From an uncultured bacterium (GTDB taxonomy: Bacteria; Omnitrophota; Omnitrophia; Omnitrophales; Aquincolibacteriaceae): a stretch of DNA of 64,000 nucleotides. The notes under the pieces were generated by a model that saw only the letters and a list, made by a program, of their open reading frames with translations, had not been told where the DNA came from and searched no databases. Location of the stretch: contig CAYSSX010000011.1 of assembly GCA_964434115.1 (NCBI GenBank), positions 3,605 to 67,604 of the forward strand. The letters are read 5' to 3'. Shown here piece by piece: positions 14,151-61,183 of this stretch (position 1 is the first letter of the stretch; the number at the start of each line of letters is the position of its first letter). Position numbers and translations under genes: made by a program.

Positions 14151-14151
14151 C

Positions 14152-37461: not shown

Positions 37462-38022
37462 TTAACGGGGTTTTTTCGGGAACACGCGAACAGCGATGTC
37501 CTTCGGAGCCTTTGCTAAAAAGCAGATTGTTTTTTTTAAGAAACCTGGCAGCCGGACCCTGCCGTTGTTCAATTCCCGAAGCCTTTTAAAAATAACATGA
37601 AGAGTCCATTCCGCGAGCGATAAAAAGCCAATCAGGCGCGACGAAAGCCTTGATCCGGCCGACGAAAAATTCACGGACTTTTTATCTCTTCGCGCCCCCT
37701 GCACAATGCCCACAAGGCTCTCCTTAAAAAATGGAGGATCCGCGACCCAGGCGTTGTCCGGCTTTGCAATCATTCCGAACTTTTCGCCGATGGGCTTTCG
37801 ATACAGAAAACGGTGAACCCAGCGATGCCCGCGCGCCGTATAGACAACAATGTCTCCCAGCCGAAGGTCCTGTGCTGAGACAGGCCGGACAAGAATTAAA
37901 TCTTCATCTTGGAGCACAGGGAACATGCATTGCCCCTTATAAATGAACCGCACAAGACCCTCGCGGGTTTCGACAGTATTAATAAGCCGCAGAGCTTCTT
38001 CCTTAATGGGGGTATCAGCCAT
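37462..38022 (-). CDS. Soluble S24/S26-type (signal-peptidase-I / LexA-like) peptidase homologue, in which the Ser/Lys dyad positions carry Cys and His
   Basis: 186 aa. KGQCMFPVLQDEDLILV aligns with SPase-I box B (G-D-S-M-x-P-T-L..GD.L.V). LGDIVVY aligns with box C (RGDIVV). RWVHRFLYRKPIGE aligns with box D (V-K-R-vIGlPGD). So S becomes C and K becomes H. There is no N-terminal TM anchor. Confidence 0.55.
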   Translation of the reverse strand: MADTPIKEEALRLINTVETREGLVRFIYKGQCMFPVLQDEDLILVRPVSAQDLRLGDIVVYTARGHRWVHRFLYRKPIGEKFGMIAKPDNAWVADPPFFKESLVGIVQGARRDKKSVNFSSAGSRLSSRLIGFLSLAEWTLHVIFKRLRELNNGRVRLPGFLKKTICFLAKAPKDIAVRVFPKKPR

Positions 38023-38087: not shown

Positions 38088-38438
38088 TTGAACCCTGTGG
38101 CCCGAGGGAAACGGCTGTTACCAAACCGGAACAATCCGTTGACCCCCGAAATGTGCAGAGCTAAACTGGTCTTAATGCAAATCCTTGTCGATAAAGAAGT
38201 TGTTTGCTGGAGTAAGCTGGGAGACGAAACGCTCCTGCTGAACCTTGATACAGGCTATTATTACACGCTCGATGAGCTGGGCGGCTTGATCTGGGAGATG
38301 CTGATCGAGCAGCATGATCAGGAAAAGATCGTAGAACGGATTGTCTCCGAGTACGAAGCCGAAAGAAAGTCTGTGGAAAGTGACTTGAAAACTCTTCTGG
38401 AAGAACTTCAGAGAGAGGGTATGATTGTCATTAAGTAG
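38088..38438 (+). CDS. PqqD-family protein (RiPP recognition element-like). Start uncertain among TTG 38088, GTG 38097 and ATG 38175.
   Basis: The C-terminal 88 aa, MQILVDKEVVCWSKLGDETLLLNLDTGYYYTLDELGGLIWEMLIEQHDQEKIVERIVSEYEAERKSVESDLKTLLEELQREGMIVIK, fit the PqqD/RRE pattern (..vL.N..TG.yy.LN..g..IWe.l..........l...Y.v......Dv..fl..L...GLi). It is paralogous to the gene at 48091. Confidence 0.8.
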   Translation: MNPVARGKRLLPNRNNPLTPEMCRAKLVLMQILVDKEVVCWSKLGDETLLLNLDTGYYYTLDELGGLIWEMLIEQHDQEKIVERIVSEYEAERKSVESDLKTLLEELQREGMIVIK

Positions 38439-38449: not shown

Positions 38450-38563
38450 GTGGAAAACGCAGAGAAACAGGAAAAGCCCGAAAGCAATGGAAAGAAGAAG
38501 CTTTATAAGAAGCCGGCCATAAAAAAATATGAACGGCTCTATGAACCCGGAATCGGATCTTAA
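38450..38563 (+). CDS. Unannotated 37-aa basic peptide, a candidate precursor/substrate peptide of the adjacent modification system
   Basis: GTG at 38450, preceded by GGGAGG (38438-38443) with a 6-nt spacer. Translation: (M)ENAEKQEKPESNGKKKLYKKPAIKKYERLYEPGIGS, stop TAA at 38561-38563. It starts 12 nt after the PqqD stop. It is homologous to the peptide at 47852 through a shared Y-x-K-P-A-(I/L)-x-K motif. Confidence 0.6.
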   Translation: MENAEKQEKPESNGKKKLYKKPAIKKYERLYEPGIGS

Positions 38564-38598: not shown

Positions 38599-40422
38599 AT
38601 GAAACCCTCTATGCCCTTCCCCCGCGTCAGTTGTATTGTTCCTGTCTTCAATGGAGAGAAGTATTTGTCCGAAACCATCGAAAGCATTCTTGGCCAAACC
38701 TACTCAAACATTGAAACTATCGTTATTGATGACGGCTCCACGGACGGCACCGCCGAAGTTTTAAAGCAGTACACTGGACGGGTCCGGGCGTTTAAACAAA
38801 ACCATTCAGGGCCTTCTGCGGCCCGGAATTTGGGCATTGAAAAATCATCGGGAGAACTCATCGCGTTTCTTGATGCGGACGATCTGTGGGCACCCGAAAA
38901 AATTCAGCAGCAAGTCGAACATCTTCAAGCTCACGCAGAACTTGATGTGTGTTTTACACAGGCCAGGAATTTTTGGATTCCCGAATTAGAGCATGAAAAA
39001 AAGAGGCTTGAGGAAGAAGGGCTCGTAAAATTTATCCACCCCTTTTTGGTCTGCACCTTCTTGGGCAGAAGAGAGATTTTTGACAAAGTCGGGATGTTTA
39101 AGCCGGAGCTTGTGATTGGCGAAGATAGTGATTTTTTTTGCCGGATGAAAGACGCGGGAATTCAAAGCGGTGTTATTTCGAAAAATTTAGTTTTCAGAAG
39201 ACTGCATGAGAGCAACCTCACCCGGAACATGTCGCTGTTCACCCGTGTGGAGCTTCAGCAGAGAGCCGCAGAGGCTCTGGGGAGGTATCGGCAAAAAGAA
39301 GCGGAGGCATCCTGCTCAGAGCAGCCCGGCAAGGCAGAAGGAAAGCCTTCGAGCCGGAAAGATGCCGATATTTTTTTTGAAGCTTTAAGCAAGGTCTATA
39401 CTCGCGCACGAAACAGCCGCGCCGGTGCAGCGGATTTTTATTATTCCATCGCCGGACATACCGTAAAACTTTGTTTTGCCGGGCCGGCACTTATTTCCCT
39501 GATGACCCCGGCACTTGAACATCTCCGAGTCAAGACACAGGAGCGCGCGGAGCTGACAATCGGCCTCTGTGATTTTGATTCTAATGACGTGGTAATGCCG
39601 GAGGTTCCTTGTACCTTTAAGGATTATACGGCGCGCCGGAAAACGACAGAATTTAATGATGATGAATACCTCCGGGCAGACTATCAAGAAAGAGCTCAAA
39701 AGCTCCACGTTCTCCACGCACAAAAAGACGAAGCCTTCTTTTTTGTAAAAAACAGCGCCTCCGTTCTCCAGGCTGATCAAGGCGCCCCGCTTGCCAAAAT
39801 TTTCCGCTGGTGGATGCGAAAAAAGGGGATCCAGCTTGTTCATGGCGGAGTTGTTGGAATGAATGGCACCGGAATTTTGCTGGCCGGAAAAGGGGGTTCG
39901 GGAAAATCGACTACAGCGCTCACCTGCCTGGCCGGAGGCATGGACTACCTAAGTGATGACTATTGCCTTGTCGAGTCCAAGCCGGTACCGGCCGCCTACA
40001 GTTTATATTGCAGCGGTAAAGTGCAGTCCAATAACCTTGACCTTGTGCCCGGGCTTTCGAAGTTAAGCAGTAAGGGCCGCCCGGATCAGGAGTCAGGGAA
40101 AACCCTTTTCTTTGTTCAGGAGCTGTTTCCTGAAAGAATAACCCGGCAACTTCTTCTTAAAGCGATTCTTATTCCCGTGATCGAAGCGCGCCCGCAAAGT
40201 GAACTTATAGGAGCATCGGCTGTCGCGGCGCTTCAGGCCTTGGCCCCGAGCACTCTGTTTCAGCTTCCCGGGTCAAAAAATAAGGACTTTTATGAGCTGG
40301 TTAAGATTGTAGAATCTCTTCCCTGTTATGTTTTCCGGGTCGGAAGCGACCCCGGGGAAGCAACGAGAATCATCCGCGAATTTTTAACCTCTCAAACGCC
40401 GGAAGCGAAGAACAAGGCTTAG
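38599..40422 (+). CDS. Bifunctional-looking protein: N-terminal GT2 glycosyltransferase fused to a C-terminal HPr-kinase-like P-loop kinase domain
   Basis: N-terminus: VSCIVPVFNGEKYLSETIESILGQTYSNIETIVIDDGSTDGT...LDADD (GT-A fold, DxD). C-terminus: LVHGGVVGMNGTGILLAGKGGSGKSTTALTCLAGGMDYLSDDYCLVE, which aligns with the HprK core (lHG..v...G.GvLi.G.SG.GKSe.AL.L...Gh.LvaDD). Confidence 0.7.
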   Translation: MKPSMPFPRVSCIVPVFNGEKYLSETIESILGQTYSNIETIVIDDGSTDGTAEVLKQYTGRVRAFKQNHSGPSAARNLGIEKSSGELIAFLDADDLWAPEKIQQQVEHLQAHAELDVCFTQARNFWIPELEHEKKRLEEEGLVKFIHPFLVCTFLGRREIFDKVGMFKPELVIGEDSDFFCRMKDAGIQSGVISKNLVFRRLHESNLTRNMSLFTRVELQQRAAEALGRYRQKEAEASCSEQPGKAEGKPSSRKDADIFFEALSKVYTRARNSRAGAADFYYSIAGHTVKLCFAGPALISLMTPALEHLRVKTQERAELTIGLCDFDSNDVVMPEVPCTFKDYTARRKTTEFNDDEYLRADYQERAQKLHVLHAQKDEAFFFVKNSASVLQADQGAPLAKIFRWWMRKKGIQLVHGGVVGMNGTGILLAGKGGSGKSTTALTCLAGGMDYLSDDYCLVESKPVPAAYSLYCSGKVQSNNLDLVPGLSKLSSKGRPDQESGKTLFFVQELFPERITRQLLLKAILIPVIEARPQSELIGASAVAALQALAPSTLFQLPGSKNKDFYELVKIVESLPCYVFRVGSDPGEATRIIREFLTSQTPEAKNKA

Positions 40423-40490: not shown

Positions 40491-41672
40491 ATGAACTCAG
40501 CAGATAAAAAAGAGCACTCTAAAGAAATACTGTTTATTCTCGAATGCCTTCAGTCGCTTATCCAAAACCGGGCGCCTGAGATAGACTCCCGGCGGATCAC
40601 CGGCCTCGACTGGAATCAGCTCCTCCGATTGGCCCGCGAGCAAAGGGTTCTGGGGCTTTTCGGGCATGTCCTCGAGAAGGGCGGGGCATTTCCTTTGGTT
40701 CCCGTGACGGTAAAAGAGGAAATCGAAAAAGGTGTTCATGAATACAACCAGGGCCTGCTGATCAAAAAGTGGCAATTTGGGTCCATTCACCGTTTATGCC
40801 GCGAGCAGAACCTCGAAATCATTCCTTATAAAGGCGCCGCCCTTGCGCTCACCGTTTTTAAAGACCTGCCTTTTCGCCGCATGAGCGATATTGATATTTT
40901 TATCCGTGAAAGCGATGCTGCGCGCATTTATCCGCTTTTTTTTAAGCAAGGCTTCGCAAGACTTGAAACGCCTTACCCTAACCGATGGCAGGCAGAGATT
41001 CTTCGGGGTGCTTATGCCGCCCCGTCAGGAAGAGAGTCCCTTTTTAAGCAAGGGTGGGACATTGATATTCATAGGCAAGCGAGATATCACATTGAAAAAG
41101 ATATCGTTTCGCTGGATATGCAGGACGTTTGGTCCAGAGCAAAGCCCAGGGCCACGGAGCTTGGAGAGGTCCTTTTTCTCGATGATATTGATCATACCCT
41201 GCTTTTGCTTTTTCACGCGATCGATCTTTTTGCCCCGCATTTCAGCCAGATTGTGGATACCGCCCTGCTGATGAAAAGCTCCGCGATTCGTAAAGAGGAT
41301 CTGATAGCAAGGCTCCCCGGAAACCTCGGCCCGGAGGCCAGTGCTTTTTTAGAAACCGCCAGCGATGCTATCGAAGAGTTTCTAGCGCCTCAGAAAAGGA
41401 GCGGAAATTTTTCAGAAGCAACGATCCGTTTTTTTGATTTGTTTTTTTACAAACGCAAGAGGACCTACGAAGAGCCGTTATCCAGCTCCGGCTGGAAGCG
41501 CCTTGCCAAAAGCCTAAAAGCCATACGGAGCGTTCGCGAGAAGGTGGTGTTTATCGCGGGATTTTTTGTGCCGGATCCAGAATACTACAAAAAGCAAGGC
41601 AAGAGCGGCCTCAGCAGTTACCTTCACCACTGGGGACAGCTGAGCTCGCGTATTTTGAAATCATTTAATTGA
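40491..41672 (+). CDS. Nucleotidyltransferase-family protein (PF14907-like 'uncharacterised nucleotidyltransferase')
   Basis: 393 aa. IPYKGAALALTVFKDLPFRRMSDIDIFI is the nucleotidyltransferase-fold G[SA]...D.D motif. This family is seen in lasso-peptide and other RiPP neighbourhoods. Confidence 0.55.
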   Translation: MNSADKKEHSKEILFILECLQSLIQNRAPEIDSRRITGLDWNQLLRLAREQRVLGLFGHVLEKGGAFPLVPVTVKEEIEKGVHEYNQGLLIKKWQFGSIHRLCREQNLEIIPYKGAALALTVFKDLPFRRMSDIDIFIRESDAARIYPLFFKQGFARLETPYPNRWQAEILRGAYAAPSGRESLFKQGWDIDIHRQARYHIEKDIVSLDMQDVWSRAKPRATELGEVLFLDDIDHTLLLLFHAIDLFAPHFSQIVDTALLMKSSAIRKEDLIARLPGNLGPEASAFLETASDAIEEFLAPQKRSGNFSEATIRFFDLFFYKRKRTYEEPLSSSGWKRLAKSLKAIRSVREKVVFIAGFFVPDPEYYKKQGKSGLSSYLHHWGQLSSRILKSFN

Positions 41673-41682: not shown

Positions 41683-42624
41683 ATGATGCGTCAACAGCTG
41701 CATTTTTTGGATATTACAATTGAACTCACCGGGGCCGCCGATTCAAATTCGCGGACTCTGCTGAAAGAGCTTCAAGGGTATGGCTCAACAGCAATCCGCA
41801 AAGATGTCTCAGGAACACTGAGCATCAAAAAGGCCGCAAACTTCAGAATTCCTAAACAAGCCTGCCTGAAAGGCTTTTGGAGATCTTCGGGACTTCGGCA
41901 CTATGCCGAAACGACAACTCATTTTTGGGTTCAAGGAAAATCAGCGATTGTCAGTAATCTGCATACCCGCGGCGTTGAAATTCATTTGGGCGATAACCCT
42001 TCTGCCGAATTTATTGCCGCGGCTAGAAACGCGATCAAGTGGCTGATCATCAAGGCTGCGGAAAAATCAGGTTATGGATATGCCCATGCGGCAGCCGCTT
42101 ATTTCCGCGGGCGGAGTATTCTTCTGCCTGGAAATCCGGGCGCCGGAAAGTCCTCCTTTGTGATGCGCCTGATGAAAGCCGGAGCCGTGGTCCTTAACGA
42201 TGATGTAACCCTGATTCATCTGGGTTCTGGCCGTATGATCCCGCTGGCCCTGAACCTTCACGTTAAAGGGGATTTTTCTAAACGGTTCAATGTTTCGCCG
42301 CGCGAGCGCTGGGCATGGTTTCGCGATGAGGCGGTAAAAGAAGCCGAAAAGGTCAAAGGGGTGGATGTTATTTTATTTCCACAGGTATGGGCAGCGTCCG
42401 AGAGCCGTGTCAAAAAACTATCGCCCGAAGAAACGGAAATACGGCTGGATGGTATTTACCTGAAAGAGATGTCCTGGAACGCTTTTCCTGCTCCATCGCA
42501 AAGAATGAAATCAGCTCACCGGAAAATGATCAAGAATGCGGACAGCTATGTTTTTTACTGCGGAACACACGAAGCAAAAATCCAGAAGCGGCTGGAGAAT
42601 TTTTTGAAAAAATATGAAGAATAA
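41683..42624 (+). CDS. HPr-kinase-like (HprK-related) P-loop kinase
   Basis: YAHAAAAYFRGRSILLPGNPGAGKSSFVMRLMKAGAVVLNDDVTLI, i.e. P-loop followed by a DD motif as in the HprK C-terminal domain. Confidence 0.6.
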   Translation: MMRQQLHFLDITIELTGAADSNSRTLLKELQGYGSTAIRKDVSGTLSIKKAANFRIPKQACLKGFWRSSGLRHYAETTTHFWVQGKSAIVSNLHTRGVEIHLGDNPSAEFIAAARNAIKWLIIKAAEKSGYGYAHAAAAYFRGRSILLPGNPGAGKSSFVMRLMKAGAVVLNDDVTLIHLGSGRMIPLALNLHVKGDFSKRFNVSPRERWAWFRDEAVKEAEKVKGVDVILFPQVWAASESRVKKLSPEETEIRLDGIYLKEMSWNAFPAPSQRMKSAHRKMIKNADSYVFYCGTHEAKIQKRLENFLKKYEE

Positions 42625-43537
42625 TCAGCGTCCTTTTTTTGTTTTTCAAGGAAAGATGCGTGTTGAGGTCCTCTCAGACAGAGCTGCCGCCAGTCAGTTA
42701 AAACGGCACCAAGACGCCGGGCGGGAGGAGAGGACTTTGCTGGCCGGCCGCCTTAAAATCTATAAAGTGAGAAGGTTCACGCCGCTCAACCACCGGGCGC
42801 TGCGCGCTCACTGCAACGGTCAAACCCGCAGGGAAGAGTATGCAAAGTCCGGGACCCACACCTACTTGGCGCCCACTTTTCAAATCCGCCTCGACAAGCG
42901 GAAGAGAAGCTGCCGCGTCGAATACTTGAAATGGGACTCCCGCCTGCTTCATGAAGTCCGGCTCCTGATACGCTGGATTATGAAATCAGCGCATCTCGAT
43001 CAGGGGTGTGTTTATTTTCCGGGCATTCTGCTGGGCTCTGACGACGGTGGCGGGGTCGCTTTTACGGGGCAGCAGGAGTGTGGGATTTTGGATGCTTTGC
43101 CGCGCGTTTCAGCTTTTGGGAGGGGCCGGCCCGGCAGTTATGGTTTTATCATGAATCCGAAGTCAAAACAGATCACAGCGCTGCCTTTTCCGGGAGTCTG
43201 CAAATATGAGAGCTCCCGGGTCTATGCTGAGGCCTTGGAAAAAACAAAACAGAAGGAGGGGGAAAAGAGCCCCCGCTTCTCCAGGAGGATTGTTTTTGTC
43301 CAATCCTGGAACCGGCCGGACTCTCACCTGGGAAGTCTTTCCAGGCGTGAAGGAGTTCTAAAACTGGATGAGCTGAACCGGAGAGCTTACGAGTATTTTT
43401 TCCCCAGTCAAAGAGAGCGTCTTTTGGAGCGCTACCAAGGCATGCGGCAGCTCAGGTTTTTTCAGCTCAATCTCGGAACAGATTCCGTGAAAGCCGCAAC
43501 GCTGCTTTCACGCTTTCTGAGGGAAGGGAAAAAGTGA
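42614..43537 (+). CDS. Hypothetical protein
   Basis: 307-aa ORF translationally coupled to its neighbours (ATGA overlap). No motifs recognised. Confidence 0.4.
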   Translation: MKNNQRPFFVFQGKMRVEVLSDRAAASQLKRHQDAGREERTLLAGRLKIYKVRRFTPLNHRALRAHCNGQTRREEYAKSGTHTYLAPTFQIRLDKRKRSCRVEYLKWDSRLLHEVRLLIRWIMKSAHLDQGCVYFPGILLGSDDGGGVAFTGQQECGILDALPRVSAFGRGRPGSYGFIMNPKSKQITALPFPGVCKYESSRVYAEALEKTKQKEGEKSPRFSRRIVFVQSWNRPDSHLGSLSRREGVLKLDELNRRAYEYFFPSQRERLLERYQGMRQLRFFQLNLGTDSVKAATLLSRFLREGKK

Positions 43538-44565
43538 AAGAAACCGTTTTTTGTACTGTGGTTTCGCGAAGCTTTTTGCCTGGAGCGTTGGCGCTGTACC
43601 GATCCCTGGAAAAGCATTGCGTTGATTTGAGTTTTACAGCGCTTGTTATAGACATCCATCCGGCCGAGGCGCGCAAACTGTCCGTAAAACTGCCTTTTCA
43701 GATCCTGACTCCCGAAGCGCTTGATGCACCCGGCCTTCGCCGTCTCTGGAAATATTATTCTGTTTTTGAACTTTGCAATGTTCTACGGCCCTTTCTGATC
43801 CGGCATCTCTTGAAAAAAAAGAAGCCCAACCAAGTTATTTATCTCGACTCGGATATCTATGTAACCGGGCGTTTTGACTATATTGAGAAAAAGCTGAATC
43901 AGTACGTTTACGCCTTTACCCCCCACACGCTAAAACCTTATCCGCTGGATTCGTTCGTGCCAAACGACCTGTCTTTGCTGCACTACGGAATTTATAACAG
44001 CGGCTTTCAGGCCTATAGAAACCATCCGCAAAGCTTCAAGGTTCTTGAATGGCTGATGCCAAGGCTCATGCTTTATGGGTTCAATGATCCGCCCCGGTAT
44101 TACGTGGATCAAAAATTTCTTCCGCTGGCAGCAGCCAGTTTCCCGGAAGGTTTTTTTTGCGTGGATCATCCAGGCTATAACATTGCTTACTGGAACCTTC
44201 ACGAACGCAAAATTGAAATAAAAGCAGGCCGTTATTTTACCCAGGGCAGCCCGGCCGTTTTCTTTCATTTCAGCGGATACGATTTAAGACGCCCCGGGGA
44301 ATGGACTCAGCGGGGGAGAAAAAAAGATCCCAGCCAGCCCTCGGGGACAAGCGGGATTTCCCTGAGGAAGCCCGCAAAGCACGCGGTGCCCACGCTCGGA
44401 AAAGTCTTGGCGGAATACCGGGAACTCCTTAAGGGATGCTGCGAGGAATTGAAAGGGGAAAAGAAAGCGGAGCTGAAAAAGCAAACGAGAAATAGAAACA
44501 GGGCCAGGTTTTTTAAAGAGGAGTACCCAAAACTCCTCAAGCAAATAAATCTTTTAAAACGTTGA
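43534..44565 (+). CDS. Putative GT-A-fold nucleotide-sugar transferase (DxD motif)
   Basis: VIYLDSDIYVTGRFDYI DxD context, with its start overlapping the upstream stop. The family assignment is tentative. Confidence 0.4.
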   Translation: MKETVFCTVVSRSFLPGALALYRSLEKHCVDLSFTALVIDIHPAEARKLSVKLPFQILTPEALDAPGLRRLWKYYSVFELCNVLRPFLIRHLLKKKKPNQVIYLDSDIYVTGRFDYIEKKLNQYVYAFTPHTLKPYPLDSFVPNDLSLLHYGIYNSGFQAYRNHPQSFKVLEWLMPRLMLYGFNDPPRYYVDQKFLPLAAASFPEGFFCVDHPGYNIAYWNLHERKIEIKAGRYFTQGSPAVFFHFSGYDLRRPGEWTQRGRKKDPSQPSGTSGISLRKPAKHAVPTLGKVLAEYRELLKGCCEELKGEKKAELKKQTRNRNRARFFKEEYPKLLKQINLLKR

Positions 44566-45664
44566 GGTATTCCGCGTTCTTTTGTTCCACAAAAAAACGA
44601 GCTTTTTCAGACAGCCCTGAAGCCAGCGAATCGTCTTCCAGAACTGACAGAACATGTTTCGAAAACTCTTCAGCGTTCCGACCCACCAAAAAAGCGTCCG
44701 TGTCTTTTAGGCCTCTTGCCCCCAAAGGGGAAGTGACCAAGGGCATTCCAAAGCCAAGGGCCGTCCTATTTTTAGTGCTGATTCCTGTCGCAAAGACCTC
44801 GGCGGAAACAACGACCCTTGCAGATTCAAAAAAGGAATCGAGGGTTTCTTGATACCCCTCAAGGGTCAGGCTGGGGGCTTTTTCTTCGATTAGCTGGCAG
44901 ATAGTTCCCGCAACCGAAAGCCGGGCTTCCGGGCACTGGCTTTGAATCCGCGGCCAAATCTGATGAAAAAAGTATTTGAAATTGGCAAGTCCTACCTGGT
45001 TTGCCGAAGAAAAAAAGACAACATTGTTTTTATTCCTCGGTGAAAATTTATTTTTTACAGGGGTCCAAAGCCCGAGTTCCACAACCGGTCTTGCGGCCGC
45101 CTTTTTGAAATACTCGGCGTCATTTTTTTGGATCGCGAGCAAAAGGTCTGAACGGAGCAGCGCCTTTGCCTCTTCCTCGGGGGAAAAGGAATACCCGTCG
45201 GACAGGGGGATGTTATGCGCGAGAAGCTGCTCATTTCTGTTGGCGTGAACATCATGGGTGTCGAGAATTTTTAAAACCGGAAACGAAAAGTAGTCTAGAA
45301 GCCGAGAAATGGAGGCATACATCACGACCACAGCCTGCGGACGAACAGACTCGAAATGCGCACGAATCGGAGCCTCCAGCCCGTCATCAAACCAGTCATC
45401 GACCCTGCGGATATGGCTGAGACAAATTTTCCCGGAAGACCGCCTCATGTTTTCCCCCTCCGCGTAATCCAGCGAGGCAAAATTTCCCCATTCCTTTTTC
45501 ATTGCCGGCAAATGGTCATCCTTTGCCTGGCGCGAGGTTCGGAGATAGAGGAAGTGGACGTCGTGGCCAAGCTCACGGAGCTTTTGAGTCAGGAAAAAAA
45601 TGCGGGACCGATGACCCGCATTTTGCGGGTGTGTGGCGATGGGGGAGACAATGAGAATTCTCAT
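44537..45664 (-). CDS. GT4-like glycosyltransferase
   Basis: MRILIVSPIATHPQNAGHRSRIFFLTQKLRELGHDVHFLYL is the GT4 N-terminal domain pattern. There is also a C-terminal GT-B domain. Confidence 0.55.
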   Translation of the reverse strand: MRILIVSPIATHPQNAGHRSRIFFLTQKLRELGHDVHFLYLRTSRQAKDDHLPAMKKEWGNFASLDYAEGENMRRSSGKICLSHIRRVDDWFDDGLEAPIRAHFESVRPQAVVVMYASISRLLDYFSFPVLKILDTHDVHANRNEQLLAHNIPLSDGYSFSPEEEAKALLRSDLLLAIQKNDAEYFKKAAARPVVELGLWTPVKNKFSPRNKNNVVFFSSANQVGLANFKYFFHQIWPRIQSQCPEARLSVAGTICQLIEEKAPSLTLEGYQETLDSFFESARVVVSAEVFATGISTKNRTALGFGMPLVTSPLGARGLKDTDAFLVGRNAEEFSKHVLSVLEDDSLASGLSEKARFFVEQKNAEYLNVLKDLFA

Positions 45665-45713: not shown

Positions 45714-46781
45714 TTAAATCGGCTCACCGGGCGAAGGAATGTTTTCTAAAAGCCCTTTTAAGGCACGCCGCTGAACAGCGCTCAAGCGCACCCCCTCAAA
45801 GATTTTTGCAGCACGCGCCAATTCAAAGTAACCTTCCTTGCTCTTTTGGGAAAAATTGAAACCGTTTCCCGTGCTGTACTTTACCGCAAGCATGGCGCGG
45901 AACGACTTTGGCTCCCGGTATTGTTTGTGGAGCGCGTTGGCATCAAAAAGGATCACGGTTCCTTTAGGTCCTACACAGTTTACAACCGGGTATTTTGACC
46001 GCACGTAAGCATCAGAATAGAGGGAATCGCTTAAACTCAAGGGAACCCTCCAGGGCCTGTGAGAGCCCTTCGCGATAAGCATGCGGACACTGCTTTCCGT
46101 GACGTCATTTAAAAAGACCAGCATCTTGAGGGTGTTAACGTTATCGCTATGCCATTCGGTTACGATTTCCTCTTCAGGGGGGGATGACGGAGCGCTTAAA
46201 GTGTTGACCACGGTAATCACCGGAAGATCCTGGACAAAGGGCTGATAGCCAAAAATTTGCCCGAGGGCCGAAAGAATCGTTTCATGGAGGGCTATTTTTG
46301 AAAAGGCTTCATCCAAAAGACTTAGGTAGCGAACCGTTAATTCTTTGACGGGTTGGTTTTTGTTCGGGACCGCAGAATAACGGTCGGCAAGTCCGTGAAT
46401 TTGATTTTGAAAATAGCCGGGCAGGATGACGAACCCATCGGATTTAAAGGAGTGTACCCAGGAGCTTATTTCTTGGTTTCGCTGAATATCAGAGGGAAGA
46501 TTTTCTGATAAGCGAAATGATTGCGGAAGGGGAAAAATCTGCCCGTGGGATAGTTTCAGCAGAAACCTTTCCGGGCGCAATAGGTTCTTTATGATAAGCA
46601 GTCCCGGGGAATCTGACCCGATGCGTTTTTCGCAGTAAAGATCCGGAGCGTTTTTTACAAGGCTGCGAGTCATCCAAGCCAGGAAGCCGCTGGTTAAACT
46701 CTTCCAGCCTCGCCGCCACAAGCGGGGCTGATGGTTAGCGATGAACCGGTACGTGTTTGCCATTTTTTTACTAAGCCGCAT
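45714..46781 (-). CDS. Putative PhyH-family Fe(II)/2-oxoglutarate-dependent dioxygenase
   Basis: 355 aa. A TEWHSDNV (H-x-D) motif and a later His-containing segment. The assignment is tentative. Confidence 0.35.
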   Translation of the reverse strand: MRLSKKMANTYRFIANHQPRLWRRGWKSLTSGFLAWMTRSLVKNAPDLYCEKRIGSDSPGLLIIKNLLRPERFLLKLSHGQIFPLPQSFRLSENLPSDIQRNQEISSWVHSFKSDGFVILPGYFQNQIHGLADRYSAVPNKNQPVKELTVRYLSLLDEAFSKIALHETILSALGQIFGYQPFVQDLPVITVVNTLSAPSSPPEEEIVTEWHSDNVNTLKMLVFLNDVTESSVRMLIAKGSHRPWRVPLSLSDSLYSDAYVRSKYPVVNCVGPKGTVILFDANALHKQYREPKSFRAMLAVKYSTGNGFNFSQKSKEGYFELARAAKIFEGVRLSAVQRRALKGLLENIPSPGEPI

Positions 46782-46798: not shown

Positions 46799-47755
46799 TT
46801 AAAGGATAAAGTCATAAGCGCCCAGCCACTGGAAGACTTTGGCGCCAAACCCGCTGTAAAATCGAAATAATCCGTCGCCTCTTCCGGGCGATGAGGAGTC
46901 GGCAGCTGGACGCTGAACACCCCAAAGATCCAAAACGGAGCAGCCCGTCTTTTTTCCGAACAGCATGGCCTGCCACATCAAAGCATAGTTGACCATCGCG
47001 TTTTTATAAACCCGGCTTGAGGCGCCATGAGGAAAGTATAGCCGGTCACCCGCCTTGAAAAGCATCATGACCGCCGCCGTTTCTCCCCGGTAGGTCGCTT
47101 TAAGCAGGTGAAGCATTCCTGTGGGTTTCATGATCTTCCAAAACAAACGCAGGGTTTCTGGTGAATGAGGGTAGGCAATCCCCGCACGAACCACAGTGAC
47201 GTTGAAAAAAAGATGCAGAAACTCCTCAAAGCATTGGTCTGAGTTATCCCGGGTTACCGCGACACCCTTTCTTTCCGCGAGCCGGATATTGTAGCGGGTC
47301 TTAGAGTGCATTTTTCCAAGCAAAGCTGGATCCGGCCCTTCCAGCGAAATAAGCAGTGTGTGCTGAGGATAAACACCTCGCGAATTCAAGCCCCCCTGGG
47401 AATGAATTTTTCTTTCGATCGATCGCTTTTCGGCTTTATCAGTTGAAGTCATAGGGTAAAGCCATCCGTAGCAGGGCTCGATTTTGAGCGAAATACAGGC
47501 GTGCTTTTTCGCGATCGTCTTTAGATAGGAAATCTGTCTGCGGCCGGGAAGCGGAGCTCTTGGAACATAGGCGAGGTTGTGATTCCGGACCACGCTTTTT
47601 TGGATGATAGCCTGGACCCCGAAGCTGGGCCCGGGATCTTCTTTCAAGCGGTGCCGAATGACTTTGAACCCCAGCCTGTGACAGTAACGGCCCCATTCGT
47701 AGGTTTGGAGGGGATGAGAAACACCTTTATTGAATTGGGCCGGGGTCACGTTCAT
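46799..47755 (-). CDS. FemAB-family (FemXAB-like, GNAT-fold) aminoacyl/peptidyl transferase homologue
   Basis: 318 aa. HLLKATYRGETAAVMMLFKAGDRLYFPHGASS...KNAMVNYALMWQAMLFGKKTGCSVLDLWGV matches the FemABX C-terminal lobe pattern (...yyl.Gas....k....yll.weai.wake.G....D..G). Confidence 0.55.
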   Translation of the reverse strand: MNVTPAQFNKGVSHPLQTYEWGRYCHRLGFKVIRHRLKEDPGPSFGVQAIIQKSVVRNHNLAYVPRAPLPGRRQISYLKTIAKKHACISLKIEPCYGWLYPMTSTDKAEKRSIERKIHSQGGLNSRGVYPQHTLLISLEGPDPALLGKMHSKTRYNIRLAERKGVAVTRDNSDQCFEEFLHLFFNVTVVRAGIAYPHSPETLRLFWKIMKPTGMLHLLKATYRGETAAVMMLFKAGDRLYFPHGASSRVYKNAMVNYALMWQAMLFGKKTGCSVLDLWGVQRPAADSSSPGRGDGLFRFYSGFGAKVFQWLGAYDFIL

Positions 47756-47851: not shown

Positions 47852-47998
47852 GTGGCAAAAAAAAAATCACAATCTCCCAAGCCTAAGACTAAGCTAGCAC
47901 CGCCGAAAGGCAGGCAAAAGAGAAAACCCTATCAAAAGCCTGCGCTTGAAAAACATAGCGAAGTTCAGTTGTGGGCGTTTGGGACCATGGGCGGGTGA
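47852..47998 (+). CDS. Unannotated 48-aa basic peptide, paralogue of the 38450 peptide and candidate precursor/substrate peptide
   Basis: GTG at 47852 with AAAGGA ~8 nt upstream. Translation: (M)AKKKSQSPKPKTKLAPPKGRQKRKPYQKPALEKHSEVQLWAFGTMGG, stop TGA at 47996-47998. RKPYQKPALEKHSEV aligns with KKLYKKPAIKKYERL of the first peptide at the protein level, but with different codons. Confidence 0.6.
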   Translation: MAKKKSQSPKPKTKLAPPKGRQKRKPYQKPALEKHSEVQLWAFGTMGG

Positions 47999-48090: not shown

Positions 48091-48375
48091 ATGTATAAGA
48101 TCGATCAAAAGGCCGTTGTCTGGAAAAAAACGGAATCCGAAGTGGTGCTCCTTAATCTAAGCACCGGACACTACTACACACTCAATGCGGCAGGCCTTGT
48201 GTTGTGGGACGGAGTTCTTAAAAAGCTTTCACCCGAGAAGATCGCTCGAAAACTGGAATCAGAGTTCGAGGTGGAATACAAAACCGCCTTTAAGGACACG
48301 CTCGAATGTCTTGATCAGCTGACCCAAGAGGGAATCATCACGAGACCGCCTACGCCTTCAACTAAAAAGAAATAA
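48091..48375 (+). CDS. PqqD-family protein (second RRE-like paralogue)
   Basis: 94 aa. MYKIDQKAVVWKKTESEVVLLNLSTGHYYTLNAAGLVLWDGVL...LESEFEVEYKTAFKDTLECLDQLTQEGII is the PqqD pattern. It starts 92 nt after the peptide gene. Confidence 0.8.
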   Translation: MYKIDQKAVVWKKTESEVVLLNLSTGHYYTLNAAGLVLWDGVLKKLSPEKIARKLESEFEVEYKTAFKDTLECLDQLTQEGIITRPPTPSTKKK

Positions 48376-48393: not shown

Positions 48394-49479
48394 ATGGTGG
48401 ATATCGTCATCGTCACTTATAATGCGCGGTCCGAGCTCATGAAATGCCTTGAGTCGGTCCGGCGTTATACGCCCGCTTCAATGTATAAATTATATGTTGT
48501 TAATAATGCCAGCAGCGACGGCACCCGCCAATATCTTGATCAAACCCGCCTTGTGAATGGTCAGTTTTTTCATCTTCCCCGGAACCTTGGGTTCTCGGGT
48601 GCAGCCAATTGGATAATCCCAAAGCTAAAATCGGCAGACGTAGTTTTTTTGGATGACGACGCCAGGGCCACCCCAGGCTGGCTTTCCGGGCTTGTCCGTT
48701 CGGTGAAAAAATCAAAAAAAACCGGCATGGTGGGCTGCAAGATTATTTATCCAGACAAAAAAATTTTTTCGTGCGAGGTTCGGTTTGGGCCGAGAAGAAT
48801 CTTATTTTTTAAAGACAGGGACCTGGGGCAGGCCGACTACGTTAAAGAAGTGGATGCTCTGGCGGGTGCCTGCTTTCTTGTCCCGCGAAAGATTTTGAAA
48901 AAAATAGGCCCCTTTGACGAAAGTTTCTTTCCCTGTCAGGGAGAAGACTGGGATTATTGTCTTCGAATCCGGAAAGCCGGCTATAAAATTATCTACAATG
49001 GCAAAGTAAGTATTATTCACAGTAATCTTTTCCGTGCGGGCGGCGAAAAAGTAAATAAAGAAAACAAAACCCGGTTCTATGAAAAGTGGAATGCGTATCT
49101 TGCTAAGCACTTTCCGCGCAAAGACAGCCACTTTGCAGACAGACTTATGTCGAAAGCGATTGCCGCGCTTGAGGCCGGCGACAGCGAAAGGGCCTTAAAG
49201 ATCTCCGGCAAGCTGGCCAAGAGCCGCCCCGAACTTGTTGAGCTGTGGGTTCCCGCGCTTGCCTATATAAGACTTCAAAATTTCAAGAAAGCCTTACCGA
49301 AGTTAAAAGAAATTATAAAAAGGAATCCGGATAACTATTCCGCACGGAGTTACCTTACCCTCTGTTTGCGCAGCCTGGGGATGAAGGGCGAAGCGGAGGC
49401 GTACACGGAGAAGATGCTTGCCTGCGTCACAAAGAACATAGACAAAAAAAGAGCCGCCGTTTCAAGGGGCAAACCTTGA
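48394..49479 (+). CDS. GT2 glycosyltransferase with a C-terminal TPR-like helical domain (SunS-like architecture)
   Basis: N-terminus: MVDIVIVTYNARSELMKCLESV...NNASSDGT...VVFLDDDA (GT-A fold, DxD). C-terminal ~110 aa have TPR-like repeats (AIAALEAGDSERALKISGKLAKSRPELVELW...LQNFKKALPKLKEIIKRNPDNYSARSYL). Confidence 0.7.
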   Translation: MVDIVIVTYNARSELMKCLESVRRYTPASMYKLYVVNNASSDGTRQYLDQTRLVNGQFFHLPRNLGFSGAANWIIPKLKSADVVFLDDDARATPGWLSGLVRSVKKSKKTGMVGCKIIYPDKKIFSCEVRFGPRRILFFKDRDLGQADYVKEVDALAGACFLVPRKILKKIGPFDESFFPCQGEDWDYCLRIRKAGYKIIYNGKVSIIHSNLFRAGGEKVNKENKTRFYEKWNAYLAKHFPRKDSHFADRLMSKAIAALEAGDSERALKISGKLAKSRPELVELWVPALAYIRLQNFKKALPKLKEIIKRNPDNYSARSYLTLCLRSLGMKGEAEAYTEKMLACVTKNIDKKRAAVSRGKP

Positions 49480-50537
49480 GCATACAACCGCTGAAGATAG
49501 AGCCTGTTTTCATTATGAGCTCAGAGAGATCAGGCAGCAATTTGCTCCGCGTGCTGCTTTCAAATCATCCGAACATTCATTCGGCGCCGGCCCCGCATTT
49601 TTTGAAGATTTTCCACACCATAATCTCATCTTATGGAGACCTGTCGGATCGAGGGAACGTCGAAACCCTTTTTTTTGACATGGCCAATTTTGTCAGTGAC
49701 GAGGGGACCGCGTGGAACACGAAGTTCGACTTCAAAACGCTCTATGAAGAGTTCAGGCCGAAAAGCTTTCTGGACTGCTTCCACCTTTTTTACACGGTAA
49801 ACACCCGCGAAAGCGGGAAGCAGAGATTTGTTGTGAAAGAAAACAACCTTTTCGATTTTGCTTTCCAGCTTGTTCATTATTATGGATCGCCTAAGTTTAT
49901 ATACTTGTACCGGGACCCGAGAGACTATGCCGCATCCTGGATGCGGCTGTCCCACAATACCTTAACGCCCTATGCGGCCGCGGTAAGATGGGCGTACGAA
50001 CAGGAAAAGTGCCTTGAGCTGATGGATGGATTCGGTCTAAAGGCTTTTCCAGTTAAATACGAGGAGTTGATTACAGATACGGCTCAGGTGATGAGTGGTG
50101 TGCTCCGGCATCTTGAGGAGCCGGATACCGATCTTTGCTGCCAGGTAGACACCCGAAAAACAGCGTGCTTTGCCTGGAACGAGAGCTGGGCCAACATCGC
50201 GCAGCCGGTCCTCAAAAACAACAGCGGCCGATACAGGTTTTTTTTGAAGAAAAAAGATATCCTGATCATTGAGAGTGCGGCTAAAGCGCCGATGCTGAAA
50301 CTGGGGTACGCGTTAGAAACCCGGGCTGACTGGAAACCTTCCATGGCGTTCCGGTGGACAGAGAAGGTGCGCGGCAGAATAAAGCGCTTTCAGGCTTCAG
50401 TGAATCGAAACAGAACAAAGGATTTCTTAGACATGAAAAAAAATCTGGTGGAAAGCATCCGCGCGCGGCAGCGTGGTTTGGCTGACAGCAGCGCCTCCCG
50501 CGGCGGGACTCGAAATCCTGGCGGAGGGAAGGCGTGA
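49476..50537 (+). CDS. Sulfotransferase-family protein
   Basis: PVFIMSSERSGSNLLRVLL is a 5'-PSB-like motif (P.F.I.G..RSGTT) and RDPRDYAASWMR is 3'-PB-like. The start overlaps the upstream stop. Confidence 0.65.
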   Translation: MSIQPLKIEPVFIMSSERSGSNLLRVLLSNHPNIHSAPAPHFLKIFHTIISSYGDLSDRGNVETLFFDMANFVSDEGTAWNTKFDFKTLYEEFRPKSFLDCFHLFYTVNTRESGKQRFVVKENNLFDFAFQLVHYYGSPKFIYLYRDPRDYAASWMRLSHNTLTPYAAAVRWAYEQEKCLELMDGFGLKAFPVKYEELITDTAQVMSGVLRHLEEPDTDLCCQVDTRKTACFAWNESWANIAQPVLKNNSGRYRFFLKKKDILIIESAAKAPMLKLGYALETRADWKPSMAFRWTEKVRGRIKRFQASVNRNRTKDFLDMKKNLVESIRARQRGLADSSASRGGTRNPGGGKA

Positions 50538-51517
50538 TTAAAAAAATATTCACGACAGCTTACCTGCGTATTGAACTTCAAACAAACTCCCGCCAGGTTG
50601 CAGCTCTGTTAAGCCGGTCGATGAGTTTTGGCGTCCGGCCGGAGAAAAGCGCCGTGAAAATTTCCTTCTTTATTACGCACGTCCCCAAATCAAGTTTTGG
50701 AGATGGCGATTATTCCTACCACCGCTTGCGCAGCAGGGAAGGGATCGCCACTCGCCTTCATCATGGATGTTTGGCCTCAGTGTCGGTTGATGAGAAAAGA
50801 ATGAGGGTTACGGGTGCGGTTTATGATTTGAAAGAAAAACACCATCCGCGTCTCGCTCAAACACTTTTTATCGACCCCCTTATTCAGCTGCTCAGCCTTC
50901 ATGGCTACCAGTTTCTCCACTGTGCACTGATCGAGAAGGGCGGCGAATGCGTTCTTGTATCGGGGCCGTCTGGAAGCGGTAAGAGCACCCTGTCTTTAGC
51001 CCTTGCCATGCACGGAGCAAAGCTGCTGACCGACGACAAGTGCCTTTTTAGATTTAACCCGGAAGGGGGCTGTACATTTTTGGCGATGCGGCAAAGCATT
51101 GGTGTTCAGCCGCATCTCTGGAGAAAATTTTCAGCGATAAGAAAATTTCCTTCAGAAATCGATTGTGACGGCAAGCGAAGGCGTATCCCGGCAGACTCTT
51201 TTGGGAAACAGTCCGCCGATCAATTTAAGTTTGCCCCCAAGGCGATTCTTTTCCCGAAGTTCAGAAAAGGCGGGAAGGTTAGAATGAAAAGCCTTTCCGC
51301 CAAAGAAGCACTTAAACGTCTGTGGGCCGACAAAAGCAATGCCTGTAATGCGGGGCGAAACAAGAAAAGTCTTAGCGAAGCCCTTTTCAGCCTTCATCAG
51401 CTGACAAAACAAACCCCGGCTTACCAGGTTTTTTATAACGATCCAGAGGTTGGAAAAATCGGAAGCCTTGTGGAGCCTTTGTTTGCGGGCCGCGGCCAGT
51501 TTCATGAATCCCGGTAA
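50534..51517 (+). CDS. HPr-kinase-like (HprK-related) P-loop kinase, the third in the locus
   Basis: FLHCALIEKGGECVLVSGPSGSGKSTLSLALAMHGAKLLTDDKCLF. GTG start overlapping the sulfotransferase stop. Confidence 0.6.
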   Translation: MIKKIFTTAYLRIELQTNSRQVAALLSRSMSFGVRPEKSAVKISFFITHVPKSSFGDGDYSYHRLRSREGIATRLHHGCLASVSVDEKRMRVTGAVYDLKEKHHPRLAQTLFIDPLIQLLSLHGYQFLHCALIEKGGECVLVSGPSGSGKSTLSLALAMHGAKLLTDDKCLFRFNPEGGCTFLAMRQSIGVQPHLWRKFSAIRKFPSEIDCDGKRRRIPADSFGKQSADQFKFAPKAILFPKFRKGGKVRMKSLSAKEALKRLWADKSNACNAGRNKKSLSEALFSLHQLTKQTPAYQVFYNDPEVGKIGSLVEPLFAGRGQFHESR

Positions 51518-52484
51518 AACCTTCTTTTCAGGCCGGGCCGATTCCCCGGAACTCTGGCGAAAATTTATTGACCCCGCGGATTGGTCCGAAGCGGTAAGGC
51601 AATTCCCCAGCGCCCCCTGGAAGCTTTATTTGATGCCCGCAGGGCAGTACACCCCCAAAGAGTGGAATCATTTTAAGCGGGCTGTGCGCTGGGTCTGGAA
51701 AAAGGCCGCGGAGAACCGGAGCCAGAGGCGTGAAAAACTTTCGGTACGGGATCTATTAAAAATCAATGCCCTTGTTATCTTTGGGGATTCCACCCTTTGG
51801 CGGAAAACCTTGCGGAATAACCGGCCGATTTTCAATTACCGGACGACTGAGGAAATCCTGCGGGTTTATGAGAGCGGTTCATGCCTTTACCGCAATGGTG
51901 ATGGACTTCCCTTACGCATTGATGGATTTTGGCCCGCCGAAGCAGCCTCCCTGGATTTTTTTACCTGCTGCAGGGCGCTTGCAGCGACGCCTTTTGATAA
52001 AAACCCCAAACAATGGGAAAAGGTTCTGCGGCATTTCAAAACCTTGCTTCATCAGAAAGTCTCAGGACGCGGTGAAAAATGGCAGGTCTACTTTACGACG
52101 AGGCGCAAAGACCTGATTAAGCAGCTGGAAATTATTTTGGACTGGTATCAGGCGCAAGCGAATCGTCTTCTTGCCGCCCAGGAAAGCGCAGGCTTTCACC
52201 CTCGTGAGGTCCTTGAACTGGCAGTCAAAATGCAGCGCTACGTTGACATGACCCAGTTCTGTATGGATGGCTCCGGCAGAACAAGCAAACTGGTTCAGGA
52301 GTATATTTTTCTGCGTTTTGGGTACTTCCCCCCAAAGCCCGTTTATTATGAGGCGTACCGGCGAGGCTGGGAAAATGGCACTTACCTCCCATTAAAGAAA
52401 GCGATCCAGATGCAGCGGCGAGGCTGGACGGCTGTTCGGCTAAACAGTCCGGGCAAGCGCCCAGCCAAAGGCCGCTCGGATTGA
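51504..52484 (+). CDS. Hypothetical protein (the start is probably the ATG at 51504, not 51450)
   Basis: ~326-aa ORF, last gene of the co-directional block. No confident motif. Confidence 0.4.
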   Translation: MNPGKTFFSGRADSPELWRKFIDPADWSEAVRQFPSAPWKLYLMPAGQYTPKEWNHFKRAVRWVWKKAAENRSQRREKLSVRDLLKINALVIFGDSTLWRKTLRNNRPIFNYRTTEEILRVYESGSCLYRNGDGLPLRIDGFWPAEAASLDFFTCCRALAATPFDKNPKQWEKVLRHFKTLLHQKVSGRGEKWQVYFTTRRKDLIKQLEIILDWYQAQANRLLAAQESAGFHPREVLELAVKMQRYVDMTQFCMDGSGRTSKLVQEYIFLRFGYFPPKPVYYEAYRRGWENGTYLPLKKAIQMQRRGWTAVRLNSPGKRPAKGRSD

Positions 52485-52700: not shown

Positions 52701-52715
52701 ACTTTGCAAGTTCAT

Positions 52716-52789
52716 GCGCCCGTAGCTCAACTGGATAGAGCATCTGACTACGGATCAGAAGGTTAGAGGTTCGACTCCTCTCGGGCGCA
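52716..52789 (+). tRNA. tRNA-Arg (anticodon ACG)
   Basis: GCGCCCGTAGCTCAACTGGATAGAGCATCTGACTACGGATCAGAAGGTTAGAGGTTCGACTCCTCTCGGGCGCA. Cloverleaf with anticodon loop CT-ACG-GA, 74 nt. Confidence 0.85.
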
Positions 52790-52855
52790 TATTTATTAAG
52801 CCCTAACCAGAAGGAACTCTTCTGGTTATTTTTTTGCGAAAAGGCAGAGGCCCGA

Positions 52856-59439: not shown

Positions 59440-59445
59440 GAGGGG

Positions 59446-61177: not shown

Positions 61178-61183
61178 GGGTGT

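Follow-up and report, generated by a model that had tools for sequence, protein, structure and literature searches.

A TPR-containing glycosyltransferase and a sulfotransferase as probable tailoring enzymes in a peptide-modification cluster of an uncultured Omnitrophota bacterium

If the genes of a glycosyltransferase and a sulfotransferase overlap one another and follow the gene of a small peptide, do the two enzymes act on the peptide or on a glycan? This question is raised by positions 48394-50537 of a 64,000-nucleotide stretch of DNA from an uncultured bacterium of the Candidatus Omnitrophota (GenBank assembly GCA_964434115.1, contig CAYSSX010000011.1, positions 3,605 to 67,604 of the forward strand). 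The whole stretch will be called the window and all positions refer to it. The first gene (48394..49479, + strand, 361 aa) encodes a family 2 glycosyltransferase (GT2) with tetratricopeptide repeats (TPRs), GT2-TPR for short, and the second (49476..50537, +, TTG start, 353 aa) a sulfotransferase of the 3'-phosphoadenosine-5'-phosphosulfate (PAPS) type. Both lie in a cluster of about 16 kb (36.4-52.5 kb) on the Candidatus Omnitrophota chromosome, predicted to modify peptides in dependence on PqqD-type recognition elements (RREs) of RiPPs, the peptides that ribosomes make and that are modified after translation.

Our comparisons favour the view that GT2-TPR and the sulfotransferase are tailoring enzymes of this RRE-dependent cluster, the product of which would probably be a phosphorylated, glycosylated and sulfated linear peptide. 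The cluster itself is, judged from its genes, a distant relative, lacking a lasso cyclase, of those for linear polyphosphorylated peptides (LPPs) and of those of the paeninodin type. What is said here of function comes from bioinformatics applied to uncultivated organisms, and the acceptor atom, the donor sugar and the order of the steps are put forward as proposals.

The glycosyltransferase, its partner genes and the peptides

GT2-TPR is a cytoplasmic enzyme of the GT-A (GT2) type with intact DxD and ED motifs and three C-terminal TPRs. Pfam identifies Glycos_transf_2 (5e-20), with TPR_16 (1.7e-6) and TPR_19 below the gathering score, and the best-scoring NCBIfam model is MftF (2.6e-16, 59.5 bits; cutoff 280). 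The residues DDD87-89 (DxD, D87-D89) and E184/D185 are invariant across the family. Because a profile of 26 family members matches consensus TPR proteins at 1e-86 to 1e-38, the tail can be assigned by its sequence as a true TPR domain of three repeats. The AlphaFold2 (AF2) model, with a predicted local distance difference test score (pLDDT) of 90.3, shows a GT-A domain, a long linker helix, six TPR helices (residues 247-327) and a capping helix. A previous sequence-only reading had described a GT2 catalytic domain followed by TPR-like repeats, and on this Pfam, the family profile and the model agree.

Three other assemblies contain orthologues of GT2-TPR and of the sulfotransferase, 70-82% identical and with the gene order preserved; this is conservation far beyond chance and indicates that both open reading frames (ORFs) are real. 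A word-indexed search returned 29 GT2-TPR relatives at 36% identity or more, all metagenomic, and a scan of one genome per species located members only in metagenome-assembled genomes of Omnitrophota and Planctomycetia. An exhaustive profile search is dominated, through summed domain scores, by giant proteins with tandem GT2 domains, each domain being 25-33% identical and without the linker signature. Within the best 150 matches the true single-domain members make up about 20 clusters at 50% identity, and the list from this search was not used for family size beyond these clusters. The giant proteins (P0221-P0368) are 1000-4400 aa long, with 3-11 GT2 domains in tandem that belong to the same broad subtype, and some have a TPR at the C-terminus.

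The ORFs of all fetched loci (numbered with the prefix L) were searched with the cluster proteins of the window. Of the 12 independent GT2-TPR family loci, which span two phyla, 11 contain PqqD; the five loci whose only GT2 relatives are distant (31% identity or less) all lack it. The twelfth family locus is a 6-kb contig that begins with the glycosyltransferase gene, adjoined by genes for an HprK-like protein and a protein like signal peptidase I (SpI). PqqD directly adjoins GT2-TPR in the window and in L003, L004, L009, L011 and L020; in L004, L018, L019 and L020 the gene immediately downstream of the glycosyltransferase is HprK-like, and in L014 and L017 the two are fused into proteins of about 700 aa. 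Fusions of GT2 with PqqD are found in GT2-TPR loci as well. Gene neighbourhood and fusion tie the family both to PqqD and to a partner that is HprK-like, encoded by the next gene or on the same chain. The link to the upstream peptide and RRE, which had been proposed from the window alone, is strengthened by these counts and fusions and by the recurrence of peptides with a YxxP motif.

An Omnitrophota locus of 21 kb (L003, GCA_030692045.1) is densely packed with RREs: its PqqD domains number at least seven, of which four or five are joined to GT2, and it also holds two GT2-TPR genes, a B12-radical S-adenosylmethionine (SAM) protein, a SPASM radical SAM protein, methyltransferases, an HprK/ScmC-like protein and four YxxP peptides.

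Two such peptides, both short and Lys-rich, are encoded in the window, each with its own PqqD/RRE paralogue. Peptide A (MENAEKQEKPESNGKKKLYKKPAIKKYERLYEPGIGS, 37 aa; 38450..38563, +) was taken from the ORF list and matches the stringent family motif given below; it accompanies PqqD1 (38088..38438, +; Pfam PqqD 4e-16). Peptide B (VAKKKSQSPKPKTKLAPPKGRQKRKPYQKPALEKHSEVQLWAFGTMGG, 48 aa; 47852..47998, +) starts at a GTG that has AAGGA as its Shine-Dalgarno sequence, and PqqD2 follows it (48091..48375, +; Pfam PqqD 1.7e-13). Peptide A carries the YxxP motif for RRE binding, and its last residue is a Ser, which falls on motif position 19. The motif stretch is YKKPAIKKYERLYEPGIGS (with Ser19) in peptide A and YQKPALEKHSEVQLWAFGT (with Thr19) in peptide B, and the C-terminal parts read …LYKKPAIKKYERLYEPGIGS and …KPYQKPALEKHSEVQLWAFGTMGG, respectively.

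In its stringent form, (K/R)-Y-x-x-P-x-(aliphatic)-x-(K/R/E)-(Y/F/H…) at 6-26 residues before a stop codon, the motif has 15 matches across 250 kb of family loci, none across 189 kb of control loci and 1.4 when sequences are shuffled; in the 64-kb window it matches peptides A and B only. Peptides of this family end 15-25 residues past the Tyr and many finish in G-x-G-S. Over its last 24 codons, peptide B differs from its counterpart in L009 by eight synonymous changes and one non-synonymous change, which indicates a real gene under purifying selection; the N-terminal part varies freely, and the tail is identical in L011. In L004 (7902-8297) and L020 (4293-4712) a peptide is joined in frame to the C-terminus of PqqD. 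The tail of the L004 fusion (…LYKKPTMKRYEQLHEIGVGS) is almost the same as peptide A; in the window this peptide has an ORF of its own, 11 nt past PqqD1. These fusions are, at the level of gene structure, direct evidence that the YxxP peptides are RRE ligands. Among solved RREs, PqqD1 is nearest to TbiB1 (4e-12), PbaB1 (5e-10) and LppB (9e-4), and PqqD2 to TbiB1 (1e-6) and PbaB1 (8e-5), with no LppB match at E<=1; by these scores both are closest to the solved lasso-B1 RREs that bind YxxP leaders.

The sulfotransferase and its relatives

The sulfotransferase matches Pfam Sulfotransfer_3 (1e-19, 72.2 bits; cutoff 27). The 5'-phosphosulfate-binding (5'-PSB) and 3'-phosphate-binding (3'-PB) motifs reported from the sequence alone are indeed there: the 5'-PSB loop SSERSGSN (residues 15-22) and the 3'-PB element R146-x7-S154 are both invariant in the family alignment. 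In public gene calls the protein starts at ATG 49515 (340 aa), and these drop the first beta-strand, PVFI (E11-15 in the AF2 model; pLDDT 92.3). The TTG, 39 nt upstream of this ATG, and PVFI are kept in all three orthologues, with synonymous changes, and PVFI in 27 homologues. The TTG start overlaps the glycosyltransferase stop by 4 nt (TTGA, in cTTGA), as had been claimed, and the HprK-like protein 3 gene in its turn begins at a GTG that overlaps the stop of the sulfotransferase (GTGA). The accompanying claim, that the pair is translationally coupled directly after PqqD2, holds in part: the 4-nt overlap and the adjacency stand, but GT2-TPR starts 18 nt past the PqqD2 stop and does not overlap it.

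Among the family loci the sulfotransferase is present only in the clade of the window (the window, L009 and L011), and this distribution shows it as a lineage-specific insertion between the glycosyltransferase and its conserved HprK-like partner. The six closest non-orthologous relatives examined (41-45% identity) all belong to sulfated-polysaccharide cassettes, and none is accompanied by PqqD. The cassette order is sulfotransferase, Acetyltransf_6, second Sulfotransfer_3, DegT aminotransferase, GT2 and GT4; where the contig is long enough there are also Wzx flippases or Wzm/Wzt transporters and further sulfotransferases. This cassette is found in unrelated metagenomic contigs (L007, L008, L028-L031), often with up to six sulfotransferases, and probably makes a heavily sulfated amino-sugar polysaccharide. 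Whether the FemAB-like gene of the window was co-recruited from it was also considered; the similarity is only weak (E 1e-5, 20 bits).

From the cassettes of its relatives, from the role of the only Tyr of peptide B as the RRE anchor and from an Ala, in this family, at the position aligned with the Glu of the CurM PPELH segment, we conclude that the sulfotransferase was recruited from sulfated-glycan synthesis and most likely sulfates a sugar. We take this Glu to be the catalytic base of CurM and of the tyrosylprotein sulfotransferases (TPSTs). The neighbouring sugar O-methyltransferase also points towards glycan tailoring. With the glycan-cassette enzymes, RaxST, SslST and TPST the protein shares PAPS-binding motifs and the Sulfotransfer_3 fold; it differs in lying between a glycosyltransferase and a kinase-like gene in an RRE cluster, and the adjacent peptide has no evident Tyr acceptor.

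The rest of the cluster and the systems it resembles

The left edge of the cluster is a putative sugar O-methyltransferase, NanM-like (36446..37444, +; NCBIfam TIGR04371, 66.4 bits, cutoff 44; no Pfam match). Next is a protein like the SipW/archaeal-type signal peptidase I (37462..38022, -; TIGR02228 at 4e-10, below its cutoff; Pfam Peptidase_S24 1.9e-5), whose gene lies 65 nt from PqqD1. It is a candidate leader peptidase, by similarity an analogue of LppS. It reads GQCMFP, with Cys at the nucleophile position, where L018 and L019 have SASMYP and GRSMHP; in an alignment with these and L015 the His and Asp of the triad are kept, and the L015 relative has Gly at the nucleophile position. The protein may be a Cys-nucleophile variant or may be inactive.

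After PqqD1 and peptide A comes a fusion of GT2 and an HprK-like domain (38599..40422, +, 607 aa; Glycos_transf_2 6e-37, Hpr_kinase_C 2e-6 at residues 413-460, with weak NCBIfam matches to HprK_rel_B and HprK_rel_A). It is followed by an NTP_transf_5 nucleotidyltransferase of the LppN/PsmN type (40491..41672, +; Pfam PF14907 8e-30), the HprK-like P-loop protein 2 (41683..42624, +; NCBIfam HprK_rel_A 5e-10), a 307-aa protein without a Pfam or NCBIfam match (42614..43537, +) and a possible GT8-like protein (43534..44565, +), for which the match is weak (Pfam Glyco_transf_8 0.0099, below cutoff) and which has a homologue in L026. Three genes are on the opposite strand: a GT1/GT4-type glycosyltransferase (44537..45664, -; Pfam Glyco_trans_1_4 1e-10; L004 orthologue at 2e-85), a weakly matched PhyH-like Fe/2OG dioxygenase (45714..46781, -; Pfam PhyH 8.6e-4, below cutoff) and a FemAB/Acetyltransf_6-family transferase (46799..47755, -; Pfam FemAB 7e-16, Acetyltransf_6 1e-12). 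The last is oriented divergently from peptide B and is kept in L009 and L011, where a PhyH-like gene adjoins it too.

Downstream of the sulfotransferase lies the HprK-like P-loop protein 3 (50534..51517, +, GTG start), which is ScmC/HprK_rel_A-like (NCBIfam HprK_rel_A 1.9e-15; Pfam Hpr_kinase_C 1.8e-5); the name ScmC derives from the SynChlorMet cassette of NCBIfam. The right edge is a conserved protein (51504..52484, +; 326 aa by the public gene call in L001; no Pfam match) with orthologues in L004, L009, L011 and L019 at 1e-59 to 1e-153. This protein and that at 42614-43537 each follow an HprK-like gene and are not paralogues. A tRNA-Arg(ACG) gene (52715..52790, +; ARAGORN) marks the end of the cluster. 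A scan for promoters and terminators gave nothing exceeding the expectation from shuffled sequences. An MsbA-like exporter was not found within 36.4-52.5 kb; an ABC-2/DrrA-type pair lies at 53958-55657, past the tRNA gene and tadA. In a Planctomycetales locus (L019:11785-14745) NTP_transf_5 is fused to an MsbA-type ABC exporter in a protein of 987 aa, which links the nucleotidyltransferase step to export.

A lasso peptide cluster was considered and ruled out, the window having neither an Asn-synthetase-like cyclase nor a transglutaminase-like B2 protease. The closest described system is that of the LPPs of Bacillota (Popov et al., Nat Commun 2026; PMC13381572), whose precursors carry the motif YxxPxVLxHQxIxFETxxS, are cut after the Thr and undergo polyphosphorylation at the Ser in position 19 of the motif. 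Their end product is not known, and the clusters are described as restricted to Bacillota and, as with lasso clusters, are embedded in capsule loci (PMC13381572). The window resembles them in its SipW-type leader peptidase-like protein beside a discrete RRE of the lasso-B1 type (given the TIGR02228 score below cutoff), in HprK-like kinases (three proteins) with an NTP_transf_5 transferase (one PF14907 protein), in a YxxPx(L/V) precursor motif followed by a basic or aromatic and a hydrophobic residue, in the absence of a lasso cyclase and in the many glycosyltransferase genes around. In peptides A and B the Y, P, aliphatic, H/Y and aliphatic positions of the LPP motif agree; FET is absent and the peptides end there.

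The differences are as numerous. The window belongs to Omnitrophota and its relatives to Planctomycetia, whereas LPPs are from Bacillota. Its RREs are nearer to TbiB1 and PbaB1 than to LppB and do not group in the LppB clade, and its peptides end 19-22 residues past the Tyr, which leaves a 'core' of at most about 4-6 residues compared with 45 in LppA. One of its three HprK-like paralogues is fused to GT2. It adds GT2-TPR, the sulfotransferase and the FemAB-like, PhyH-like and sugar methyltransferase proteins, whereas the MsbA-type exporter is missing and the peptidase has Cys at its nucleophile position.

In lasso peptides of the paeninodin and pseudomycoidin type, an HprK kinase phosphorylates the Ser at the C-terminus, and a nucleotidyltransferase adds hexoses to the phosphate (PMC8498205). 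Peptide A likewise ends in Ser and the window encodes enzymes of both kinds; it has no lasso cyclase or B2 protease, and those clusters have no GT2-TPR. A sulfotransferase without an assigned role has been noted in some Firmicute lasso clusters (PMC8498205), and the likeness to that of the window is one of description only. GT2 enzymes are tied to PqqD-type RRE systems also in mycofactocin biosynthesis (MftF) and in the RRE-GT2 (PF00535) fusions noted bioinformatically (PMC12710340). The glycosyltransferase of the window differs from these in carrying a TPR, not an RRE, and in having no radical-SAM MftC-type chemistry beside it.

Other parts of the window are of a different kind. Positions 1-20000 hold the region of the replication origin, with parB, parA, mnmG and yidC on the - strand, followed on the + strand by dnaA (11499-12914), dnaN, gyrB and gyrA; the GC skew changes sign and the GC content dips to 0.42 near 12-14 kb. 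The encoded GyrA groups, at 90% identity or more, with a protein of Candidatus Omnitrophota. A GH94 phosphorylase is encoded at 983-3457. Upstream of the peptide cluster, at 24653-33390, is a separate ABC-2 (Wzm/Wzt-like) polysaccharide locus with GT4, GT2, a 582-aa TPR protein and a nucleotide-diphospho-sugar transferase, an arrangement that mirrors the capsule-locus embedding reported for LPP clusters. On the other side, a run on the - strand (57785-63568) encodes a methyltransferase, a GT2, a B12-binding radical SAM protein, a second methyltransferase and a 561-aa protein without a Pfam match, and may be another modification module.

Proposed function and its alternatives

In the mechanism that we propose, PqqD2 would bind the YQKPAL motif of peptide B, and the glycosyltransferase would be recruited through its TPRs to the RRE-peptide complex or to the HprK-like kinase. 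With a nucleotide sugar as donor, it would then glycosylate the short segment at the C-terminus (...SEVQLWAFGTMGG), at the Thr of motif position 19 or the Ser of position 10; alternatively, the acceptor might be a phosphate or a sugar placed earlier by the HprK-like and NTP-transferase enzymes. The sulfotransferase would then O-sulfate the added sugar, giving a small phosphorylated, glycosylated and sulfated linear peptide. Of the glycosylation and sulfation of a peptide suggested from the sequence alone, the first part appears sound, glycosylation of a peptide-linked substrate being likely from the associations described; the second needs to be modified, since the relatives of the sulfotransferase are found in glycan cassettes and sulfation of the peptide itself is less likely than that of a sugar.

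The sequence-only reading had gone further and called the glycosyltransferase SunS-like, an enzyme of the SunS/ThuS (glycocin) type whose helical domain binds the precursor and whose direct S- or O-glycosylation is the class-defining step. The C-terminal domain of SunS and ThuS is helical and TPR-like, and the layout is the same: a GT-A GT2 domain with DxD at the N-terminus, then an all-helical C-terminal domain. SunS and ThuS moreover act on ribosomal peptides, a peptide and an RRE adjoin GT2-TPR, and its top Foldseek matches (ppGalNAc-transferases, AvpGT, RmlT and WrtF) include the ppGalNAc-Ts, which are peptide O-glycosyltransferases; all of them match by the GT-A domain only. With SunS (yolJ) from phage SPbeta (L010:8714-9979) as positive control, the SunS model TIGR04195 (curated cutoff 350 bits) gives 798.8 bits for SunS itself and no match at E<=0.01 for GT2-TPR. 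BLASTP aligns the two proteins at 23% identity over 103 residues, at the N-terminus only, and the profile-sequence comparison by hhalign aligns no more than 109 columns (query 6-134), the nucleotide-binding half of GT-A. Neither SunS nor ThuS is among the 53 PDB sequence matches, the PDB profile matches listed or the top 50 Foldseek matches of GT2-TPR. The C-terminal domains are not homologous: GT2-TPR has a canonical TPR tail and the SunS tail has no significant Pfam TPR match. GT2 with a TPR tail is also found in the giant tandem-GT2 proteins, so that the architecture, which had been thought diagnostic, is not so by itself. The partners expected of a glycocin are missing as well, there being no Cys acceptor and no double-glycine leader in peptides A and B, and no gene for a thiol-disulfide oxidoreductase (Bdb) or a peptidase-ABC exporter (SunT-type/C39-ABC) in 36-57 kb. 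To our knowledge glycocins do not use PqqD RREs. On these comparisons GT2-TPR is not SunS-like, the likeness being one of general layout and not of family, and we regard a glycocin-type enzyme here as very improbable.

The opposite view is that the glycosyltransferase and the sulfotransferase have only a polysaccharide as substrate, either lipid-linked or secreted (a sulfated capsule or exopolysaccharide, for example), and that their adjacency to the peptide and RRE is incidental or a matter of co-regulation. The polysaccharide cassettes around all six sulfotransferase relatives would fit this, as would the Wzm/Wzt-type locus upstream and the embedding of LPP and lasso clusters in capsule loci (PMC13381572). 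It is rather unlikely, however, in the light of the linkage of PqqD to the glycosyltransferase in two phyla (11/12 family loci, 0/5 distant ones), the fusions of the glycosyltransferase to HprK-like domains and the joining of GT2-TPR, sulfotransferase and HprK3 by overlapping start and stop codons right after PqqD2; neither a flippase nor a polymerase nor a priming transferase is encoded within 36.4-52.5 kb. A third view keeps the peptide and makes it the target of sulfation, by a TPST/RaxST-like enzyme acting on Tyr31 of peptide A (ERLYEPG) or on a Ser, Thr or hydroxylated residue of peptide B. Tyr-sulfated RiPPs do exist, namely RaxX and the lanthipeptides made by SslST (PMC11143521), the Tyr of peptide A is flanked by acidic residues, and the best PDB folds are those of TPST1/2 and a tick TPST. 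This similarity goes no higher than TM ~0.5, and the clade has no solved structure of a bacterial glycan sulfotransferase. An accessible Tyr and relatives in peptide contexts, as a peptide tyrosine sulfotransferase should have, were not found: Tyr31 is replaced by His in related peptides, the sole Tyr of peptide B is occupied as the RRE anchor, and the nearest homologues are in glycan cassettes. Together with the Ala at the CurM Glu position, this makes direct sulfation of the peptide unlikely. Grouping with carbohydrate sulfotransferases, which had been named as an argument against a peptide role, is largely seen in gene context, although the fold remains nearest to TPSTs.

Several observations nevertheless weigh against the tailoring of a peptide-linked sugar that we favour. 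The family locus L005 has its PqqD 5 kb away and no HprK-like gene, and in the SpI-like peptidase of the window Cys replaces the Ser nucleophile. As the S3T variant of LppA is not phosphorylated by LppK (PMC13381572), Thr19 of peptide B may, by analogy, not be a kinase site. In the Foldseek comparison the TPSTs lead (E 1e-7 to 1e-6, TMt 0.56-0.63, 14-17% identity), CurM and OLS come next, and the carbohydrate sulfotransferases Stf0 and NDST are above 1e-3. Ordinary polysaccharide genes are present in the window itself (24.6-33.4 kb). Finally, related GT2 domains (25-33%, some with a TPR tail) belong to the tandem-GT2 giants that probably build glycans, and GT2-TPR may therefore extend a glycan and not modify an amino acid.

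A bolder version of the proposal, which we put forward tentatively and hold to be possible but not probable, is that the YxxP peptides are not antibiotic-like cores but ribosomal primers or scaffolds. A phosphodiester-linked, methylated and sulfated oligosaccharide would be built on their last residues (the Ser of peptide A; Thr19 or the C-terminus of peptide B) by the paired GT2/HprK-like modules, the NTP transferase, the methyltransferase and the recruited sulfotransferase, all working on an RRE-held peptide. If true, it would be without precedent as a sulfated glyco-RiPP, and neither Omnitrophota nor Planctomycetia would have had an RRE-dependent pathway characterised before; it might also be a way into capsule-like surface glycans that is primed by a peptide.

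Few RiPPs are glycosylated and fewer still sulfated, and we know of no RiPP with a sulfated sugar. The locus hints at a new sulfated, sugar-bearing ribosomal peptide. Five genes (for peptide B, PqqD2, GT2-TPR, the sulfotransferase and HprK3) make up a compact, well-delimited set with potential as tools for peptide-directed glycosyl- and sulfotransfer. The comparative set of GT2-TPR proteins and of GT2-HprK, GT2-PqqD and RRE-peptide fusions shows which proteins cooperate. The LPP family was thought to be confined to Bacillota (PMC13381572), and the present locus extends its logic to other phyla: the same recognition logic (YxxP leader, lasso-type RRE, HprK-like kinases and SipW-type peptidase) is now seen in uncultivated Omnitrophota and Planctomycetia. 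As far as gene content can tell, this is the RRE-kinase logic of the LPP/paeninodin type in a variant form, to which belong a GT2-TPR family of its own and a sulfotransferase recruited in this lineage.

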